UHGV virus genome: UHGV-0219734
DNA: 20,304 nucleotides
Origin: a virus
Strand: one strand, 5' to 3'
Shown here: positions 1-9,011 of the stretch, piece by piece
Layout of the letters: each line of letters begins with the position of its first letter
Numbering within the stretch: position 1 is the stretch's first letter
The notes under the pieces: model-generated
Seen by the model: the letters and a program-made list of their open reading frames with translations, nothing else
Databases searched by the model: none
What the model was told of the DNA's origin: nothing
Translations under genes and position numbers: made by a program

Positions 1-2817
1 TTGCCATTCGCAGGATTAATCATCGCAATCCTGTCCGCCGCCAGCAGCACCTGACTCTGCATACCGTCAGGGGTATTCTCAATACCGGCACCAATACCCG
101 CGATATAAAGGCGTCCGTCCTGCATCTGCTGCAGCTTCACAGCCCACATGCTGTTCAGGTTATTATTTGTATCAACCTGAACCTTCTGTATCTGCTGAAT
201 TGCCGCACTCTGGTCTTCCAGTTTCTTATTGACGGTCTGCGTGATTTCATTGCTGACATCCGTAATGGACGTCCTGATTTCAGCCAGGTCAGGCGCAAGC
301 TGACCGTTATCAATCTGCGTCCACAGCTCCTGAGCCAGATGGCTTTTCCCTATCTCTCCTTTGAAAAAATCCAGATAGCCGGATGCATCATCACTCGGCT
401 GGCCAACAGCCTCCACAAATGCCGATTTGCCAACGGTGTTCACACTGCGGATGTAAAAATAATAATCATGGCCCGGTTTGATATTGATACTGGCGGCTAT
501 CCAGTACAGCGCCGTGCCAAGATAGCGGGCTGTGGTTTCAACCTGCCTGATATCGGTAATCCGCGTTTCCGAGAACCAGAACTCAAACTGTACCGTCGGA
601 TCATAAACCGCAAGATGCGGCGTGGCAGTTATCTGAAAATAGCCCGGCGTCAGCTCAATCCGCGACGGCGCTGCCGGTGCGGCAATCCGGAACGATACCG
701 ACGCCGGATCGCCCTGCTGCCCCCACGCATTTACTGCCCGGACTGTCAGCCTGTAGTTCCCCAGCGCCAGTTGCCTGAAGCGGTATGTGGTTTCCGTCGT
801 CCTGGCCGTGCTGACCAGCCGCTCACTGCCGTCGTCCGCTGCCACGGTCAGACGGAGCAGGAAGCTCACGCCCTTCACCACCTTCGGCGTGTCCCAGCGC
901 GCCAGCACCTGGTATTCCCCGCTGTCTGCGGTGACTTCGGCGGTCAGGTGCTGCACCGCTGGCGGCGTGACACCATTCACCGTGCCGCTCTGGTCGCCGT
1001 CAAAGTGCGCCCCGTTATCCACGATGGCCTCTTTTTCCGGTACATGCTGCACGGCGGTGATGGCATACGTGCCGTCGTCGTTCTCACGGATACTCACGCA
1101 GCGGAACAGGCGCTGGCGCAGCGTCGGCAGCTTCAGCCCCCACACGCTGTATTCAGCAACACCGTCAGGAACACGGCTCACTTTTACCTTCACGCCGTCG
1201 GTGACGGACTGAACCTCCACGCTGACCGGATTGCCACTTCCGTCAACCAGGCTTATCAGCGTGGTACCGGAGGATGGCAGCGTGATTTCACGGTCGAGCG
1301 TCAGCGTCCGGGTCTGGCTGTTCACCGCCAGCACACGACCACCGGTGCTGATACCGGCATAGTCATCATCACAGATTTCAATAACATCGCCCGGTACATG
1401 GCGAAGCCCTTCTGCGCCGACGCTGAAATCCACGGTCTGCGTTTCCAGCAGTTCTGTTTTAATCAGCCACAGCCCGGCGCGGTGTGCCTGCCCCCGACTG
1501 GTACAGCCAAAGGCATCCATCTTCGTGACGTTACGACCGTAACGGGCAATGGCCTGCGTGTCCTCCACAAGCTCTGTCGCCGTCTCCCAGCCGTTGTCCG
1601 GGTCAATCCAGTTCACCTCAACGGCATTATGGCGGTCCTTCAGGGCGCTGAAGCTGTAGCGGAACGGCGCGCCATCATCCGGCATCACCACATTACTGCG
1701 GTTATAGGTCCACACCTTATCCGACGGTCGGTCCTGCACGAACGTCAGCGTCTGCCCGTTCCATACCGGCATACAGCGCATCGCCGAGCAGAAATCACTG
1801 AGCACATCCCACGCCTTGCGCTGTGTGGTCAGGTACGCATTACAGGTGATGCGCGGCTCCGTGCCGCCAAAGCCGTCCGGCACTGACTGGTCGCAATTCT
1901 GGCCGATGACATACAGCGCCCATTTATCCACATCTGCCGCACCAAGACGTTTCCCCATGCCGTAGCGCGGGTGGGTCAGCATATCCCACAGACACCAGGC
2001 CATGTTGTTGCTGTATGCCGGTTTTAACGTTCCGTCCCAGATACCGCTGTATTGCCGCGTCTGCGGGTTATAATTCGACGGCACCTGCAGAATGCGCCCG
2101 CGAAGATGATAATTACGGCTCACCTGCTGGCTGCCGAACTGCTCCGAATCCACCTGCACGCCGACCAGTGCCGTGTTCGGGTAGCACTGTTTCACATCGA
2201 TGATTTCGGTGTATGACGACCAGAGCGTTTTGTTCTGCAGCTGGTCTGTGGTGCTGTCCGGCGTCATCCTGCGCATCCGGATATTAAACGGGCGCGGCGG
2301 CAGGTTATCCACCACCACCGAGGCCAGATACTGCGAGGTGGTTTTGCCCTTAATGGTGATGTCTTTTTCCGTCACCCAGCCACCGTTACGCTGTATCTGA
2401 ACCAGCAGGCGGACTTCCGACGGATTCCGGTCCCCCTTTGAAGTGGTTTCCACCAGTGCCTGCACACCGAAGGTAAAGCGCAGTCGGTCGATGTTTGCCG
2501 ACGTGATGGTGCGGGTGATCGGCGTGTCATATTTCACTTCCGTACCCAGCACCGTCTCGGAACCGGAGGATTCAAAGCCCTCCGGCGGTGTCTGCTCCTG
2601 CTCACCTGCCCGGAACACCACCGTGACGCCGGAGATATTGGTATTCCCCTCACTGTCCAGCACCGGCGTACTGTTCAGCAGCACGCTTTTTAACCCATCC
2701 ACCGGACCTTCAACCGGCCCTTCGCTGATGGCATCGATCACACTCAGCAACTGCGTGGACTTCAGGTTGTCCTTCGCTTCGCGCGGGGTATGCCCCTTAC
2801 TGCTACCTTTACCCATT
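1..2817 (-). CDS. J: Tail tip / central tail fibre protein J, N-terminal ~939 codons (3' end runs off the window start)
   Basis: Minus-strand ATG at 2815-2817 preceded by GGAG. Translation begins [13 protein letters not shown], and a spot-checked internal stretch (~1800-1890: [40 protein letters not shown]) matches lambda gpJ as I recall it. The ORF track reports no minus-strand ORF below 2883, consistent with one open frame leaving the window. The large plus-strand ORFs here are Arg-rich antisense artefacts. Confidence 0.9.
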
Positions 2818-2828
2818 CCTCACACTCC

Positions 2829-2857
2829 ATAAACAACAAAGCCGCCCAAAAGGCGGC
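2829..2857 (-). terminator. Rho-independent terminator-like hairpin downstream of the lipoprotein moron, immediately 5' of the J ribosome-binding site
   Basis: Plus strand reads aaacaacaaa-gccgcc-caaaa-ggcggc: a 6-bp all-GC stem with 5-nt loop. On the minus-strand transcript the hairpin is followed by a U-rich tract (UUUGUUGUUU). Lies between the lipoprotein stop (2883) and J start (2817). Confidence 0.55.
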
Positions 2858-2882
2858 TCATGAGTTACGGCAGGATTAACTA

Positions 2883-3221
2883 TTATTTACATGCATTAAC
2901 ACTATCAGCAAAAATTTTTGGCGTTAATGCTGGTACGCGTTCATAAAGAGTAAAACTACTGCCATTTCCTGCTTTTTTGATATCAAGCACAACATCATAC
3001 CCACCCATAGCCTGTGGAACTAAAAGGCTTACCCCATTCTCAATAGGAATGGATGTTATAGGTGTTCCATTACCAGCCCATTGTCTGGATATGCAGCCTG
3101 ACAATTCATCAATATTTTTTAATGAATTACCTTCCATTACAGGCTTGCCGGATTTTACGTAATCCAAAGATTTACATCCTGTTAAGGCAATAATCGTGCA
3201 GAATAAAATCGTTTTGTTCAT
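2883..3221 (-). CDS. Moron-encoded small secreted lipoprotein of unknown function (112 aa from ATG; track ORF extends to a TTG at 3233)
   Basis: Translation MNKTILFCTIIALTG|CKSLDYVKSGKPV... has a hydrophobic signal peptide plus lipobox (L-T-G-C), Lys at +2, and two further Cys (SGCISRQ, NACK). AT-rich gene with AT-rich upstream region and terminator hairpin downstream. Sits between I and J, which are adjacent in lambda. No strong Shine-Dalgarno seen, so start is uncertain. Confidence 0.6.
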   Translation of the reverse strand: MNKTILFCTIIALTGCKSLDYVKSGKPVMEGNSLKNIDELSGCISRQWAGNGTPITSIPIENGVSLLVPQAMGGYDVVLDIKKAGNGSSFTLYERVPALTPKIFADSVNACK

Positions 3222-3293
3222 ATAGCTAACCAACAGAATAATTATCAGTGTTCGATATAAATATTAAATCAGTTAGAACATGAGTAAATAATA
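3222..3293 (-). promoter_or_regulatory. AT-rich putative promoter region of the lipoprotein moron
   Basis: About 70 bp of very AT-rich sequence between the I stop and the lipoprotein start, with several -10-like hexamers on the minus strand (e.g. GATAAT, TATTTA). Exact -35/-10 cannot be assigned by eye. Confidence 0.3.
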
Positions 3294-3965
3294 TTACCGC
3301 CCAATTACCACAACCTGACCACCATCCCCTTCATCTGCCGTGCTGATCTCCTGAGATGCCACGCGTGACCCCACGCGCATTTCACCGTACAGAACGGGCA
3401 GAACATTACCCTGGGCAACCATGTTATCCAGTGAAGAGAAATACGTGTTCTGCTTACCGTTATCCGTTGTCTGTGTACGGGGAGTTCTGGCTTTCGGTGC
3501 CAGCATCTGCGCCACACCACCGAGCACCATACTGGCACCGAGAGAAAACAGGATACCGGTCATACCACCGGCCCCAATGGCTGCCCCCCATGCTGCAAGG
3601 GTGGCTCCGGCAGTAAAGAATGATCCGGCAATGGCGGCAGCTCCCAGGACAATCTGGAATACGCCACCTGACTTGGCCCCGGCGACTCTGGGAACAATAT
3701 GAATCACAGCGCCATCAGGCAGAGTCTCATGTAACTGCGCCGTTAATCCGGACGTGCTGACATCCCGTCCGGCAATCCGTACCTGATACCAGCCGTCGCT
3801 CAGTTTCTGACGAAACGCCGGGAGCTGTGTGGCCAGCGCCCGGATAGCTTCAGCCCCCGTTTTCACACGAAGATCGATGCGGCGGCCAAATCGTTGTAAA
3901 TCCCCGTAAAGGCAGATGCGTGCCATGCCCGGTGACGCCAGAGGGAGTGTGTGCGTCGCTGCCAT
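3294..3965 (-). CDS. I: Tail tip assembly protein I
   Basis: 223-aa ORF with ATG at 3963-3965; same length as lambda gpI. Gly/Ala-rich hydrophobic C-terminal half (GAAAIAGSFFTAGATLAAWGAAIGAGGMTGILFSLGASMVLGG). Position between K and J. Overlaps the K 3' end by 103 nt in another frame. Confidence 0.9.
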   Translation of the reverse strand: MAATHTLPLASPGMARICLYGDLQRFGRRIDLRVKTGAEAIRALATQLPAFRQKLSDGWYQVRIAGRDVSTSGLTAQLHETLPDGAVIHIVPRVAGAKSGGVFQIVLGAAAIAGSFFTAGATLAAWGAAIGAGGMTGILFSLGASMVLGGVAQMLAPKARTPRTQTTDNGKQNTYFSSLDNMVAQGNVLPVLYGEMRVGSRVASQEISTADEGDGGQVVVIGR

Positions 3966-4606
3966 TTGTCGGTATACCTCTCTCGTTTGCTCAGTTGTTC
4001 AGGAATATGGTGCAGCAGCTCGCCGTCACCACAGTAAATGGCGGCATGATTCGGCACCGATGAACCAAAACAGCACAGCAGCACATCGCCCGGCTGCGCC
4101 GCTGACAACGGCACCTGATACAGCCCTGTGGCCTCCAGATTATCCAGATAGAGATTCTGACCGTTACGCCACCAGTCATCCTCGCGATGAAAATCCGGCA
4201 TCTCAATCCCCGCCAGATGGTAAGCATCCCGGAACAGCGTGTAACAGTCCGTCACCCCGTGCTCAAAGCGCCGCCCGGTAAGATGTGGCACACAGCGGAA
4301 CTTGTAAATCGCCCCCCGGCAGACCAGCCACCACGGCAAATCACTCTGCACCTGCAGCCGCCGGTCGGCTTCACTCAGCCAGGGCAGACCACCGGGATGG
4401 CTGTGCACCAGCGCGACTATCTCACCCTGCATTTCTGCCTGCAGCCAGTCTTCCGGCGACATCCGGAAATACGCCTCAGGCTCACCGGAGATATTCACGC
4501 AGGGAAAATATCTTTCCCCCTCCGGCGTTCTCACCACGAAGCCGCACGACTCCGCTGGCGCACATCGCCGGGCGTGCGCCAGAATCGCTGATTCTGTCTC
4601 TGTCAT
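3863..4606 (-). CDS. K: Tail tip assembly protein K (JAB/MPN metallopeptidase + NlpC/P60 domains)
   Basis: 247-aa ORF, ATG at 4604-4606, 6 nt after the L stop. JAMM-type motif ALVHSHPGGLPWLSEAD; Cys/His pair typical of NlpC/P60 (GVTDCYTLF ... NHAAIYCGDG). Conserved lambda-like order L-K-I. Confidence 0.9.
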   Translation of the reverse strand: MTETESAILAHARRCAPAESCGFVVRTPEGERYFPCVNISGEPEAYFRMSPEDWLQAEMQGEIVALVHSHPGGLPWLSEADRRLQVQSDLPWWLVCRGAIYKFRCVPHLTGRRFEHGVTDCYTLFRDAYHLAGIEMPDFHREDDWWRNGQNLYLDNLEATGLYQVPLSAAQPGDVLLCCFGSSVPNHAAIYCGDGELLHHIPEQLSKRERYTDKWQRRTHSLWRHRAWHASAFTGIYNDLAAASIFV

Positions 4607-4611
4607 GGGAT

Positions 4612-5310
4612 TTACTGCGAAAGTTTGTTAATGGAAAGGAAGCCGCCAAAGTTGCCGACGTTATTGCGAAACTTACAGCCACTCAGGCATTTGCTGCATT
4701 TATCCTTCGTGATATCGGACGTCGGCTGGTCATATTCATCCGCGACAGCCGGACCGTTATAACCGCACTCATCACCGCGATAGGTCCAGGTGCAGGTATT
4801 AGCCAGCATGATGCGCCCCGGAAAAACAGCACCATCCGTTTCCGTCGGCGTGGACAGTACAAAGGAGGCACTCACCGCGCTCAGTTCGCTGCACTGCTCG
4901 ATGCGCCAGCGGCTGATCACCTCCTGCTCCGGATCGGCGTCGCTGTTTCCGTTGACGAAGTTCACCGCATCCAGAAAACGGGCATAAACCTTACGCCTGA
5001 CCACCGTTCCGCCGACCAGACTCTGCAGGTCTTCCGCCATCCCGGTGACCATACCGTACAGGTTAGAAACCGTCAGCGTGGGACGCGTACTGGTGCCTTT
5101 GCCATTCAGTTCGAAACCACTCCCCTGAATGGGATACGCCTGATACTGCCGCCCCTGCCAGGTGACCGGCTCACCTTTTTCGTTCTGCTCATTACAGAAA
5201 AAATAACGTTCTCCACCAACCTCTGTCAGATCGATTTCCCAGAGCACCACGCAGGCAGACTGCTCCGCACGGGTGCATTCATTCAGTGTTTCCTGTCGGA
5301 TATTCTGCAT
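4612..5310 (-). CDS. L: Minor tail protein L
   Basis: 232-aa ORF, same length as lambda gpL. Start ATG overlaps the M stop (ATGA). Cys cluster near the C-terminus (CSKCLSGCKF). Gene order M-L-K. Confidence 0.9.
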   Translation of the reverse strand: MQNIRQETLNECTRAEQSACVVLWEIDLTEVGGERYFFCNEQNEKGEPVTWQGRQYQAYPIQGSGFELNGKGTSTRPTLTVSNLYGMVTGMAEDLQSLVGGTVVRRKVYARFLDAVNFVNGNSDADPEQEVISRWRIEQCSELSAVSASFVLSTPTETDGAVFPGRIMLANTCTWTYRGDECGYNGPAVADEYDQPTSDITKDKCSKCLSGCKFRNNVGNFGGFLSINKLSQ

Positions 5311-5639
5311 CAGTTCACCACCTGTTCAAACTCTGCGCTGAACTCAACACGCAACATACTGACCCGCGACGACCATTTTGCGCAGGTCACCTTTATCTGC
5401 CGGTAGCCATAAGGCGGCGTCCACAGAAAGGCCTTCCAGCCCCCGTGCTCAGCCAGAAACGATTCCAGTGCCGTGGCCTCCTCGCGGGGAACAGAAAGCG
5501 TCACGCTGTACGTTTTCAGGTCAGCGTTCAGCCCGGCAGGCGCACGCTGAGAATAGCCATCACCAAAGCGCACCTTTATTACGGAAGGGGCCGAAGCCAC
5601 ATCCATACCGGGTTTCACTTTCCAGCGGAAGGTTTTCAT
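5310..5639 (-). CDS. M: Minor tail protein M
   Basis: 109-aa ORF (MKTFRWKVKPGMDVAS...EFSAEFEQVVN), matching lambda gpM length and, by recollection, nearly all of its sequence. ATG overlaps the H stop (ATGA). Confidence 0.92.
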   Translation of the reverse strand: MKTFRWKVKPGMDVASAPSVIKVRFGDGYSQRAPAGLNADLKTYSVTLSVPREEATALESFLAEHGGWKAFLWTPPYGYRQIKVTCAKWSSRVSMLRVEFSAEFEQVVN

Positions 5640-8600
5640 CGTCCACCTCCGGAGAACAGACCACCATCACGGGACTGCTGTTGCATAAAGTCCGCTGCTG
5701 CTTTTTTCCCGAGGTCATAAACCACCTTCAGGGCAGCCGGACCTATCTGCCCGTTCGTGCCATCGTTATTGATCTCGATGTTGTACTGCGGGGCAAACAT
5801 CGCCATACCTGAACCACCAATATCCGCCACAACCCCCAGCTTACCGTCAGCACCACGACGCAGAGGCAGAATGGCTTCAGGCCCAGCTTCCCCCATCACA
5901 CCTGCACCTTTTGCAAAAGCAAAAAACGTCGGACGGTTAACCACCGTGCCACTGTAGCGACTCAAATCAGCAGACTGATAAACACCACCATCAGCATTGG
6001 GCGTCACACTGGCAGTTGCTGCACTCCCCCAGCCAAACGCCGAACCAATCCCCTTAACTGCCTGCATCATGGACATCTGGGCCATGATTTTTGCCAGATC
6101 AGAAAGGAGCGAGGCGGTAAAAGATTTGAAGTTCAGTTTTCCGGTAGTACAGAACGTTGCCAGTGCATTACCTGCACTGTTAAATGCCGCTGTAAGCATC
6201 TGCTCAGCAGTGCCTGCCGCATTATCCGCATCTGCCGTGAAATTCTGAAACGCCCGCATAGCACCGTTTTTCCAGTTACCCTGAGCAATTTCAAGCTGTT
6301 GCCAGTAACGGCGATTCTCATTCAGTTGTCGGTTCAGGCTCTCCGTCAGCGCCTGCTCGGCCTTTCTGTAGTCATCCGTGTTATATGTCCCTTTCTGCTC
6401 ACTATCCCGCCTCAACTGCTCCAGCTGTTGCTGGTATTTCTGGCGAAGACTCAGTTGTACCTGATATCGCTGCCGCTGCTGATCACCCATACCCACCGTG
6501 GCGATATCCAGGTCATGTTGCTGGCGCTGAGCGCGCTCTTCTTCAGCCAGTTGACTGGTCAGCTGAATTGTTTTTTTCTTCAGATCGTTGAGTGCCGTCT
6601 GTTTCTGAAGCTCCTGCTGTTTTACATCCAGCAGCGTCAGTGCCTGAATCAGTTCATCTTTACGGGCCAGCAAACTCTTTTCATCTGCCGTCAGTTTTTT
6701 CCCGTCCAGATCGCTGATGCGCTGCTGCAGAGCCAGAAGCTGTTTATGCGCTTCTGTCATCCTGTCAGTGGCAATGCCTGCTGACTGTCTTGCAGCAGCA
6801 ATCTGCCCTTCCACCTGTGCCTGTTGCTGACTGTACTGCAGCAATAACCGGGTGGCCTCATCATTACGGGTTTCGCGTGTTTTTTTCTTACCGGATGCCA
6901 GGGCTTTCTCGTAACGTTCATTTTCACGTTGTATCGCCGCATCCCTGACAGCCTGATCGGCGTACTGCATGGCATTAATACGCGCAATTTCACGCTGATG
7001 CCGTGCTGCTTCCGTTTCATTCATCCGGTTCAGTGCAGCATTTTCAGCATTACGGCGTTTCTGTTGCTCCTGATAATTCCGCTCTGCCTGCTCTTTTGCA
7101 TCCTGCAAATCCTTCTGGCGTTTTTTCTCCTGAAGATCGTTAAGACGCTGCTGATCGTATTCAACCTGAGAAGATGATGCCGTCCAGGGGAGTCTTTTCG
7201 CCCGCGACACTTTCTCCTGTAAAGCGGCAATCTGTTCATCCAGCGAGTCTTCACGACCAATATTCATGGCCGCATCCCAGAACTGCTTCCACCAGTCAGA
7301 CAAAGTTTGCAGCGTGCTACCCAGCGCATTGAGGTTATTATCAATATCCGCAGTACGACGATCGGTTTCCTCTGCCAGTGCAGACATGGCTATCCGTGCA
7401 GCATCACTGGACCGCCCCTGCTCCCCAAGGACGCGTATCTGCTCAAGCTGAGTGGCAGTAAGAAAATGCAGCTCATTGTCCAGAGCCTTCGCGGCATTTA
7501 CAGGATCATCCTTCAGCCGCTTAAACTGACTTATGGTATCGCTGACCGACTGGCCAACCGATCGCTCCATCTGTGCGGCAGCTCTCGCCACCATACCGAT
7601 ATCGTTTCCACGAAATGCACCACTCCCCACCACCTGAGCCAGCGCACCGGCTGCAGCATGTTGCGTGATACCATTCCCGGAAATAGCACGACTGAGCGTC
7701 CACAGTTGCCCGGCAGTGACTCCGGCATAATGCCCCGTCAGCGACAACTGGCGGTTAAATTCTTCCCCCTCCTTCTGACCGTCATACCAGGCTTTACCCA
7801 GACCATAGACGGCCGCGGCAATACCGCCAATAACCCCGCCCAGCATCATGCCTTTCGGTGACATCAGTGTGTCTATCCATCCGGCACGGTTAGCCAGCGT
7901 TATCCCGGATCCCCTCAGCGCACCTAAATTGCCGCGGGCCAGTTCACCTATCAGAACGCCTATCTCCTGGCGGGCCGCTGCACTTTTCAGACCCAACGAA
8001 TGCGTGGCTTTTCCTGCCTGCTCCATTTTGCGGATATACACTTCTGCAGCACTGCTTACCCCCAGTTGGGCAGCCTTAGCACGAAGCAACTCAGAAGAAG
8101 AAAGATTCTGGCGGGTTGCCTGCTCTTTAAGCTGACGGATAAACGCCACTTTCTGTCGGGTAGACTCTTCCTCAGCCTGTGTAAGAACACGGGTTTTCGC
8201 AGTAACCTCAGAAATCAGCGCCAGATAATCCTGCTGACCAATCCCGCCACTGTTTCTGGCCTGTCGGATCTGCTGCTGAATACGCTGTAATTCCTGCAGC
8301 CCCGCACTGGCCTGGTTCACACTGTCAATCTGACGATAAAACGCAGCAGCCGCTTTATCCTGAGCCTCCGCCAGAGCCATGGCCTGCGCCTGTTCCTCGC
8401 GCATTTTCTGGCTCAGCGCCTCCATGCGCTGGCGGGTTTTCTCCACCTCGCGGGCCATGCGTTCATGAGCCTGTGCGTTCTTCTCCACCGTCTGCGCATG
8501 GACGGATGCGGCTGTTGCAGCCGAAGAAGCCGCCTGCGTTGTCTGCCGGGCGGCCTGAGTCTGACGCTCCATAAAACGCTGCATACGGGCAGAAGACCGT

Positions 8601-8710
8601 TCTGCATCGCTGGCTGCACCATTCAGAAGGTTTTTGATACGGGGGATTTCATTTTTAAACTCTGCCGCATCAATCCCCAAATCAATGACCAGGTTGGCTA
8701 TCTGGTCCAT
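5636..8710 (-). CDS. H: Tail tape measure protein (gpH-like), ~1024 aa from ATG 8708-8710
   Basis: Long ORF with extended coiled-coil-like middle (Q/E/R/A/L-rich). N-terminus MDQIANLVIDLGIDAAEF and C-terminus ...NNDGTNGQIGPAALKVVYDLGKK...RDGGLFSGGGR resemble lambda gpH. Strong SD (GGAGGTG) upstream of the ATG at 8710; the track start at 8740 is a TTG N-terminal extension. Confidence 0.9.
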   Translation of the reverse strand: MDQIANLVIDLGIDAAEFKNEIPRIKNLLNGAASDAERSSARMQRFMERQTQAARQTTQAASSAATAASVHAQTVEKNAQAHERMAREVEKTRQRMEALSQKMREEQAQAMALAEAQDKAAAAFYRQIDSVNQASAGLQELQRIQQQIRQARNSGGIGQQDYLALISEVTAKTRVLTQAEEESTRQKVAFIRQLKEQATRQNLSSSELLRAKAAQLGVSSAAEVYIRKMEQAGKATHSLGLKSAAARQEIGVLIGELARGNLGALRGSGITLANRAGWIDTLMSPKGMMLGGVIGGIAAAVYGLGKAWYDGQKEGEEFNRQLSLTGHYAGVTAGQLWTLSRAISGNGITQHAAAGALAQVVGSGAFRGNDIGMVARAAAQMERSVGQSVSDTISQFKRLKDDPVNAAKALDNELHFLTATQLEQIRVLGEQGRSSDAARIAMSALAEETDRRTADIDNNLNALGSTLQTLSDWWKQFWDAAMNIGREDSLDEQIAALQEKVSRAKRLPWTASSSQVEYDQQRLNDLQEKKRQKDLQDAKEQAERNYQEQQKRRNAENAALNRMNETEAARHQREIARINAMQYADQAVRDAAIQRENERYEKALASGKKKTRETRNDEATRLLLQYSQQQAQVEGQIAAARQSAGIATDRMTEAHKQLLALQQRISDLDGKKLTADEKSLLARKDELIQALTLLDVKQQELQKQTALNDLKKKTIQLTSQLAEEERAQRQQHDLDIATVGMGDQQRQRYQVQLSLRQKYQQQLEQLRRDSEQKGTYNTDDYRKAEQALTESLNRQLNENRRYWQQLEIAQGNWKNGAMRAFQNFTADADNAAGTAEQMLTAAFNSAGNALATFCTTGKLNFKSFTASLLSDLAKIMAQMSMMQAVKGIGSAFGWGSAATASVTPNADGGVYQSADLSRYSGTVVNRPTFFAFAKGAGVMGEAGPEAILPLRRGADGKLGVVADIGGSGMAMFAPQYNIEINNDGTNGQIGPAALKVVYDLGKKAAADFMQQQSRDGGLFSGGGR

Positions 8711-9011
8711 AACGCACACCTCCGGAAATACCTTCCCCAAGATGCATCAGTTCTTCGTCCGTTCGCTCCGGTATCCCGTTCTCTTCCGGTAAAAGGCTGA
8801 AATCAGCCACCGCAGCATCACTGCTGCCGGACACCATTCTCACGATCAATGCCTTCAGCGAGGCAAACTGCGCATCCATCCACACATCACTGAAGCTCTG
8901 CATCCGGAAATAATCGCCCCACTCACCAAGCTCAGTGGCCGACATTTCCGACAGCATCCGCCGCCAGTCTGCCCGCCGGAACTCCCGGGCAAGCCGCATG
9001 ACAAACTGCAT
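8682..9011 (-). CDS. T: T-frame segment of tail assembly chaperone, expected to be expressed as a G-T fusion by -1 frameshift
   Basis: ORF in the -1 frame relative to G, open from just upstream of the G stop. Translation ...LAREFRRADWRRMLSEMSATELGEW...GGVRYGPD resembles lambda gpT. Position between G and H. Confidence 0.8.
   Translation of the reverse strand: MQFVMRLAREFRRADWRRMLSEMSATELGEWGDYFRMQSFSDVWMDAQFASLKALIVRMVSGSSDAAVADFSLLPEENGIPERTDEELMHLGEGISGGVRYGPDSQPGH

Follow-up and report, generated by a model that had tools for sequence, protein, structure and literature searches.

A lambda-type tail operon in the viral genome UHGV-0219734, of which we analysed one stretch of 20,304 nucleotides (the window), carries a small lipoprotein gene, here called lip, between tail genes I and J. 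All features of this junction lie on the minus strand. The upstream neighbour, tail assembly gene I (3965-3294, TAA stop at 3296-3294), matched Pfam PF06805 Lambda_tail_I (E 1.2e-28), and the downstream neighbour, the tail tip or host-specificity gene J (1-2816, start at 2816), is preceded by the Shine-Dalgarno sequence GAGGA at 2821-2817 and cut by the left window edge. An earlier note on this DNA had put the insert between the two genes at about 475 bp; the measured gap was 477 bp (2817-3293), against 60 bp in the insert-less relative mEp460. As the note also held, a single convincing open reading frame (ORF) occupies the gap. This is lip (3221-2883), which encodes 112 aa followed by a TAA stop and corresponds to the RefSeq 'hypothetical protein' WP_153274582.1. 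It is preceded by an AT-rich spacer of 72 nt (3222-3293) and followed by a terminator-like GC hairpin with an interrupted T tract (2829-2859). The GC content was 0.365 for the gap and 0.236 for the spacer; lip had a GC of 0.369 with a GC at third codon positions (GC3) of 0.27, against 0.58 and 0.56 for gene I and 0.58 and 0.70 for gene J, so that the reported AT-richness of the insert relative to the tail genes was borne out. A moron in the sense of Juhala and Hendrix is extra, compositionally distinct DNA between adjacent genes, with its own promoter and terminator and with expression from the prophage (PMC3594210). The insert is indeed extra DNA between genes that are adjacent in relatives, and its composition deviates from theirs. 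The central reading of the note stands: lip is an accessory lipoprotein gene that entered the tail operon by horizontal transfer and is not related to Bor, Cor or Llp.

The N-terminus of lip has the layout of a lipoprotein signal peptide. It reads MNKTILFCTIIALTG directly followed by CKS (M1-C16 at 3221-3174), with a basic n-region, an uncharged h-region, the lipobox L-T-G-C ending in Cys16, and Lys17 at +2. This agrees with the PROSITE PS51257-type rule ([LVI][ASTVI][GAS]C, Cys at 15-35, basic n-region) and with the signal peptide, lipobox and +2 lysine described earlier, and the predicted mature protein has 97 aa. The whole of lip, residues 1-112, aligned with positions 1-118 of the 118-position profile of phrog_914, a PHROGs family of unknown function (E 5.7e-33). 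A profile search of 1.84 billion representative proteins yielded 116 homologue clusters, nearly all of 105-125 aa, and a word-indexed search added relatives at 47-61% identity in Enterobacter, Citrobacter, Kluyvera, Jejubacter and Salmonella. Conservation of the family reaches down to about 22% identity. Among 30 diverse members only C16 of the lipobox, C43 and C111 were invariant, and P27, K35, W48 and G63 were nearly so. Of the 115 full-length members, 106 have a lipobox and 107 a Cys within the last four residues; at +2 the family uses A, S, T, K, V, G, E, L or M and never Asp. From the lipobox and the absent Asp at +2, lip is predicted to be lipidated and sorted to the outer membrane. Variable sites among E. 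coli alleles fell on codon positions 3, 1 and 2 in the ratio 10:5:2, and the identical protein was found on at least 1,000 contigs. Thus lip is a real gene of a widespread, uncharacterised bacterial lipoprotein family of about 112 aa, whose members bear no database names other than 'hypothetical protein', 'phage protein' and 'lipoprotein'.

Searches for a known function gave nothing beyond the family itself. When the full set of 38,880 PHROGs was scanned with hmmscan (E up to 1), phrog_914 alone was returned. At the same cutoff no Pfam family matched lip, 30 members of the family gave only lipid-attachment-site motifs in Pfam, and none of the defence profiles of PADLOC-DB 2.0 was matched. NCBIfam yielded nothing except a signal-peptide match, and the matches of a PDB profile search were confined to the signal peptide (VirB7, FlgP and Llp, the last being 8a60_B at E 0.49). 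An Rfam scan of positions 2600-3500 gave nothing over threshold. In the literature, the RefSeq accession and phrog_914 went unmentioned, and nothing specific on lipoprotein morons in I-J junctions was found. Two leads were discarded: the JGI label 'YceK' on some distant members is an annotation artefact, with no Pfam DUF1375 match recorded for them, and P0030 (1,047 aa, with repeats), which arose in the hidden Markov model search, is a low-complexity false positive.

The confident AF2 model of lip (pLDDT 84, pTM 0.76) is a beta-alpha-beta4-alpha domain, with C43 placed in helix 1 and C111 in the helix at the C-terminus; according to this model, a periplasmic Cys43-Cys111 disulfide probably clamps the domain. 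Structure searches recovered only a common fold, the TBP-like or helix-grip half. The best structural match was Flpp3, a lipoprotein that its PDB entry calls a Francisella virulence determinant, and the matches included one Pseudomonas phage protein, a probable member of the family; no match pointed to a function. Identity to Flpp3 (the DUF3568 lipoprotein of Francisella) and to the N-domain of BamC was 6-10%, without a Pfam match, and a fold of this type is also found in many unrelated proteins, such as KA1 and DUF302. Because the fold is so common and the identity so low, homology of lip to Flpp3/DUF3568 or BamC is not established.

The comparison of I-J junctions called for in the earlier note showed a presence/absence polymorphism. 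At 95% identity or more, 337 of the 5,426 complete E. coli genomes (about 6%) contained the insert, at 349 places in all, whereas the adjacent J 5' end occurred at 8,611 places in 4,283 E. coli genomes, so that about 4% of lambda-type I-J junctions carry it. In addition, 108 lambda-like phage records match both flanks yet span just 284 bp there, without the insert, and tblastn of lip against 50,697 phage records found only two distant homologues, at 30-33% identity. Where lip occurs in E. coli, the arrangement is invariably I-lip-J (59 IMG/VR loci). It is carried by more than one kind of prophage: the match to the window in strain GU2018_CL13 is a prophage located at dusA, and the carrier prophage of O55:H7 CB9615, which adjoins prfC, has only the J-to-M segment in common with the window. 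The note had named a conserved tail component at this junction as the finding that would overturn its reading; the gene is not conserved at the junctions. It is optional cargo, dispensable for the tail, and no conserved tail component. Another lambda-type I-J junction, in L052 (12233-12575), holds a different insert of about 340 bp with two GC hairpins and without a convincing ORF. It seems that unrelated insertions, among them possibly a small RNA, favour the I-J gap as a hot spot.

The hairpin that precedes J required a different reading from the one first given. Its stem-loop at 2859-2839, GAGCCGCC-TTTT-GGGCGGCTT, begins 23 nt past the lip stop, has 9 bp (6 of them GC), and is followed by TGTTGTTTAT and then by the J Shine-Dalgarno sequence. 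With a free energy of -21.6 kcal/mol (z = -4.05 against shuffles), the GC stem and U tract described earlier are present and stable; the structure does not, however, belong to the insert. Insert-less junctions, including mEp460 (L004, 424-470), L052 (2900-2945) and thousands in E. coli, carry AAACCGCC-TCCG-GGCGGTTT followed by TTGTCGTTTATGGAG at the same distance from J, and the versions with and without the insert are one compensatory G:C to A:T stem change apart. The hairpin thus appears to be resident in lambda-type I-J junctions rather than brought by the insert, and it gives no evidence of an independent transcription unit. In the late operon it could be an RNA 3'-end or a stability element.

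The edges of the insert are marked by a 7-bp direct repeat, ACTCATG, with its left copy at 3285-3279 and its right copy at 2865-2859, where it shares the first base of the hairpin. A repeat of this kind arose by chance in about 2% of shuffles, with boundary windows that were picked post hoc. A joint formed by microhomology recombination could account for it, as could a target duplication. Removing the 420 bp between the ACTCATG copies made the window collinear with a lip-less junction (221 versus 224 bp, 85-88% identity), which places the cassette just upstream of the resident hairpin. In every other slot examined, homologues of lip also have a GC hairpin and T run on their 3' side, just before the Shine-Dalgarno sequence of the next tail gene. 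For this reason a second history was considered: the lambda-type hairpin could be ancestral, with the insertion upstream of it, or it could be the scar of a lost cassette, with the insert-less junctions arising by deletion. The collinearity fits either.

The region upstream of lip had been called promoter-like, and this was not confirmed: the spacer is AT-rich. A consensus scan of the coding strand found no sigma-70 site (at least 9 of 12 positions at 16-18 nt spacing), and shuffled sequences averaged 2.1 such sites. In a relaxed scan the best match at the standard 16-18 nt spacing reached 8 of 12, and one 9/12 match had a 15-nt spacer. Besides a weak Shine-Dalgarno sequence, the 72-nt spacer contains only weak sigma-70-like matches, such as TTTACT-17-AATATT and TTTAAT-16-GATAAT. 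No promoter was found 5' of homologues in four other contexts, and in L005 and L073 the homologue follows about 40 bp after K, behind a strong Shine-Dalgarno sequence (AAGGAG), without space for a promoter. With lip co-oriented with the late tail operon and no terminator between I and lip, the gene is predicted to be transcribed whenever the late operon is. As an architecture with its own promoter and its own terminator is not established, neither is independent expression, and what is left of the classic moron architecture claimed before is extra, compositionally foreign DNA with one lipoprotein gene. In L066-L071, where the homologue occupies the slot between chaperone and tape measure, its Shine-Dalgarno sequence GGAGG has a pairing partner, CCTCC, 8 nt further 5' (aaCCTCCttacttctGGAGGtgtgaaaATG), in a stretch about 30 nt before the ATG (L066 7970-8000, for instance), and this pairing suggests that the homologue may be under translational control by Shine-Dalgarno sequestration.

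Outside the I-J slot, homologues within tail modules were about 50% or 30% identical to lip. The order K-lip-I was found in Kluyvera, in metagenomic contigs and in the phages Fraca and LMessi. In L066-L071 the homologue sits between the chaperone and tape-measure genes, in the order tail tube, chaperone G, T, lip, HK97-type tape measure, M, L and K. A related-locus search with a 7-sequence alignment returned one species genome only. Among phages, all contexts seen were J-type siphophages, mostly within the tail module. Other members were found away from the tail: one distant member lies at a prophage end beside integrases, another is on a Rep3/ParA plasmid, and in a Shimwellia chromosome the order is yidB-lip-ecotin, without phage genes. 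Two Xanthomonadales genomes, Dyella (L084) and L085, also carry lip without phage genes (at 6001-6339 and 6001-6438, respectively), in a conserved synteny where ppnN and lip are followed by a GspH/FimT-like minor pilin gene, encoded on the other strand, and by uvrB, which hints at an ancestral cellular role. The family thus moves among slots and among mobile elements. It is distributed like an accessory gene whose source was a family of bacterial envelope lipoproteins, a capture of the kind described for gp15 and YebO (PMC3594210).

Some of these slots hold further cargo. In L065 a 4-kb island (4060-8900) between K and I contains a lip homologue. Upstream of the homologue lie Arc-like, KilA-N/antirepressor-like and XRE-like genes, named from their translations alone, and after it comes a second, unrelated lipoprotein of 149 aa without a Pfam match. 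In phage Fraca (L002), an 89-aa ORF at 4725-4994, between K and the lip homologue, has the motif DPDSAKF...VCGYVNAKNSYGAYTG and no Pfam match; it is a second cargo piece in the K-I slot.

Two further observations concern the genes that flank lip in the window. The middle of gene I (3550-3762) diverges from the prophage of O55:H7 CB9615, with 95-96% identity on both sides, and the window allele of I is 98% identical to the I gene of an insert-less L052 junction; the divergent patch and this likeness show mosaicism within I. A 515-aa ORF on the plus strand (339-1886), antisense within J, was taken as a shadow ORF of GC-rich coding DNA.

Among known systems, the closest parallel is HK97 gp15, a superinfection-exclusion protein encoded in the tail operon, related to YebO and with chromosomal homologues (PMC3594210). 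Like lip, it is a small envelope protein whose compositionally foreign gene is co-oriented inside a siphophage tail operon, and both families have chromosomal relatives outside phages. Moreover, the slot of HK97 gene 15, the founding moron, between chaperone G/T and an HK97-type tape measure, is the one taken by lip homologues in L066-L071. The two proteins differ in that gp15 resides in the inner membrane, is no lipoprotein and has no sequence relation to lip; for gp15, prophage expression and exclusion activity were shown experimentally. Cor (phi80, N15, T1 and mEp167) and Llp (T5) are exclusion lipoproteins encoded beside a J-like hub (PMC11990801). They resemble lip as small lipoproteins next to the central tail-fibre or receptor-binding genes of siphophages. 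In contrast, lip has a larger mature protein, a different alpha/beta fold, and no co-inheritance with one receptor-binding domain. The PHROGs and Pfam searches detected no homology to Cor, and the PDB profile match to Llp covered the signal peptide only. Bor of lambda, with Iss, is an outer-membrane lipoprotein of a prophage (PMC3594210). The predicted lip product is likewise a prophage-encoded outer-membrane lipoprotein of about 100 aa, and it did not match the Pfam profile Lambda_Bor. Unlike lip, Bor is encoded close to the lysis genes and outside the tail operon. The statement in the earlier note that lip matches none of Bor, Cor and Llp is therefore sustained, as no relation was detectable in Pfam, PHROGs or PDB profile searches. 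According to PMC3952083 and the title of Bebeacua 2013, Ltp of Streptococcus phage TP-J34 is a moron-like prophage lipoprotein that blocks DNA injection via the tape measure and not via the receptor. Ltp serves as the model of a receptor-independent mechanism; it differs from lip in its Gram-positive host, its surface exposure and its place in the lysogeny module, and it has no sequence relation to lip.

By a narrow balance of probability, we favour the explanation that a foreign accessory gene was acquired that encodes an envelope-acting lipoprotein, most likely a phage-exclusion factor. The proposed course of events is as follows. About 420 bp of foreign AT-rich DNA with a single accessory gene would have been inserted just 5' of the resident I-J hairpin in a lambda-type tail operon. 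After export of the precursor by Sec, Lgt, LspA and Lnt would carry out lipidation and cleavage at Cys16 and DsbA would form a C43-C111 disulfide, leaving a compact 97-aa domain that faces the periplasm and is tethered by about 12 residues. There, lip may bind an envelope component and block the entry of incoming siphophages (superinfection or progeny exclusion), at a step without specificity for the J receptor-binding domain. This exclusion of incoming siphophages through envelope binding, proposed by analogy with the systems above, is in itself possible and falls short of an even chance. In a bolder and more doubtful form, the phrog_914 lipoproteins would be a new class of exclusion factors of phages and plasmids, recruited from a chromosomal envelope lipoprotein. 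They would act from the inner leaflet of the outer membrane on a conserved post-adsorption step of J-type entry (tail-tip opening or tape-measure exit), whichever receptor J uses. A receptor-independent block would explain both the hopping of the gene among slots of M-L-K-I-J modules whose J proteins are 30-100% divergent and its uncoupling from the receptor-binding domain. In order of preference, we place receptor-independent exclusion before a Bor-like host-fitness factor and the latter before a periplasmic immunity or inhibitor protein.

Several results weigh against exclusion as the role of lip. No promoter was detectable above chance, and the Shine-Dalgarno sequence of the window allele is weak. 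The gene is not always kept: frameshifted or truncated alleles occur in the prophages L062, L063, L064 and L072, where it appears to be decaying. The chromosomal synteny in Xanthomonadales suggests an ancestral housekeeping role in the envelope, possibly without any connection to phages. Finally, neither PADLOC nor Pfam nor the PDB provides a sequence or profile tie to a known exclusion or defence family.

Receptor masking, one of the candidates named in the earlier note, lost ground when lip alleles were compared with their J genes. As a Cor/Llp-type mask, lip would inactivate the outer-membrane receptor of its own phage from the periplasmic face, thereby excluding homologous phages and shielding progeny from debris. 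The gene directly adjoins J, the locus of such factors in small siphoviruses (PMC11990801), and its product is, by prediction, a lipoprotein of the outer membrane that faces the periplasm. To type the J C-terminus, the last 250 aa were compared at 35 loci with a complete J. The same lip allele (at least 98%) was found upstream of four C-terminal types, at 24, 6, 3 and 2 loci, which are 60-75% identical to one another or unrelated. Two tested receptor-binding domains also recur at 99% identity or more in records of Stx-converting phages, all without lip. One allele with four or more J types, and nearly identical domains without lip, mean that there is no coupling to the receptor-binding domain, which weakens the mask model. 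Family members on a plasmid and on chromosomes without phage genes, and the lack of homology to Cor or Llp, are further points against it, and we consider a receptor-specific mask improbable. A lysogenic-conversion or host-fitness factor unrelated to phages, which would act in the manner of Bor/Iss in serum resistance, envelope-stress tolerance or adhesion, is unlikely as well, albeit to a lesser degree. Like Bor (PMC3594210), lip is a predicted outer-membrane lipoprotein in a prophage; its syntenic chromosomal homologues imply a cellular envelope role, and its best structural match is described as a virulence determinant. On the other hand, the Bor profile PF06291 was unmatched and no lysogenic promoter was detectable, and phage contexts that are all J-type siphophages, mostly in the tail module, are hard to square with a pure host factor, with the reservation that this sampling is biased.

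The T4 protein Spackle is an analogue for the inhibition of a tail-associated peptidoglycan hydrolase, and lip could likewise be an immunity protein or an inhibitor of a periplasmic enzyme or toxin, whether such a hydrolase, a colicin or an effector of the type VI secretion system. A small periplasmic lipoprotein with a predicted disulfide would suit this role, as would the position of homologues directly after K, a C40-family peptidase, in several phages and the occurrence of members on a plasmid and in chromosomes. However, the adjacency to K is not kept, since the I-J and T-H slots are also used, no toxin gene is a consistent neighbour, and no homology to known immunity or inhibitor families was found; we regard this role as quite improbable. 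That lip is a decaying passenger is very improbable, and a functionless chance ORF is effectively excluded. Frameshifted alleles exist, and no promoter was detected for the window allele, whose Shine-Dalgarno sequence is weak, but a chance or idle sequence would not account for conservation to about 22% identity with three invariant cysteines, for the third-position bias of its variation, or for the exact protein on so many contigs. The position of lip in the tail operon, embedded and co-oriented and hence expressed late, might speak for a part in tail structure or assembly, or for an accessory role in lysis. This is the least probable of the alternatives, and a structural role is effectively excluded: no more than about 4% of lambda-type I-J junctions have the gene, 108 related viable phages do without it, it has homologues outside phages, and its lipoprotein signal peptide would export the protein from the cytoplasm, where tails are assembled.

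Accessory genes in prophage tail operons have repeatedly proved to be exclusion or virulence factors, as with HK97 gp15, Cor, Lom and sodCI of Gifsy-2. The lip gene is an uncharacterised member of this well-known kind, without a Pfam family or a literature of its own, and older annotation skipped it. Its study also corrects a misreading of the locus, in that the J-proximal hairpin is a conserved feature of lambda-type junctions. If lip is not an exclusion factor, it would be one further envelope lipoprotein. If it does exclude phages irrespective of their receptor, it would matter both for the host range of phages used in therapy and for the understanding of entry by lambda-type tails.

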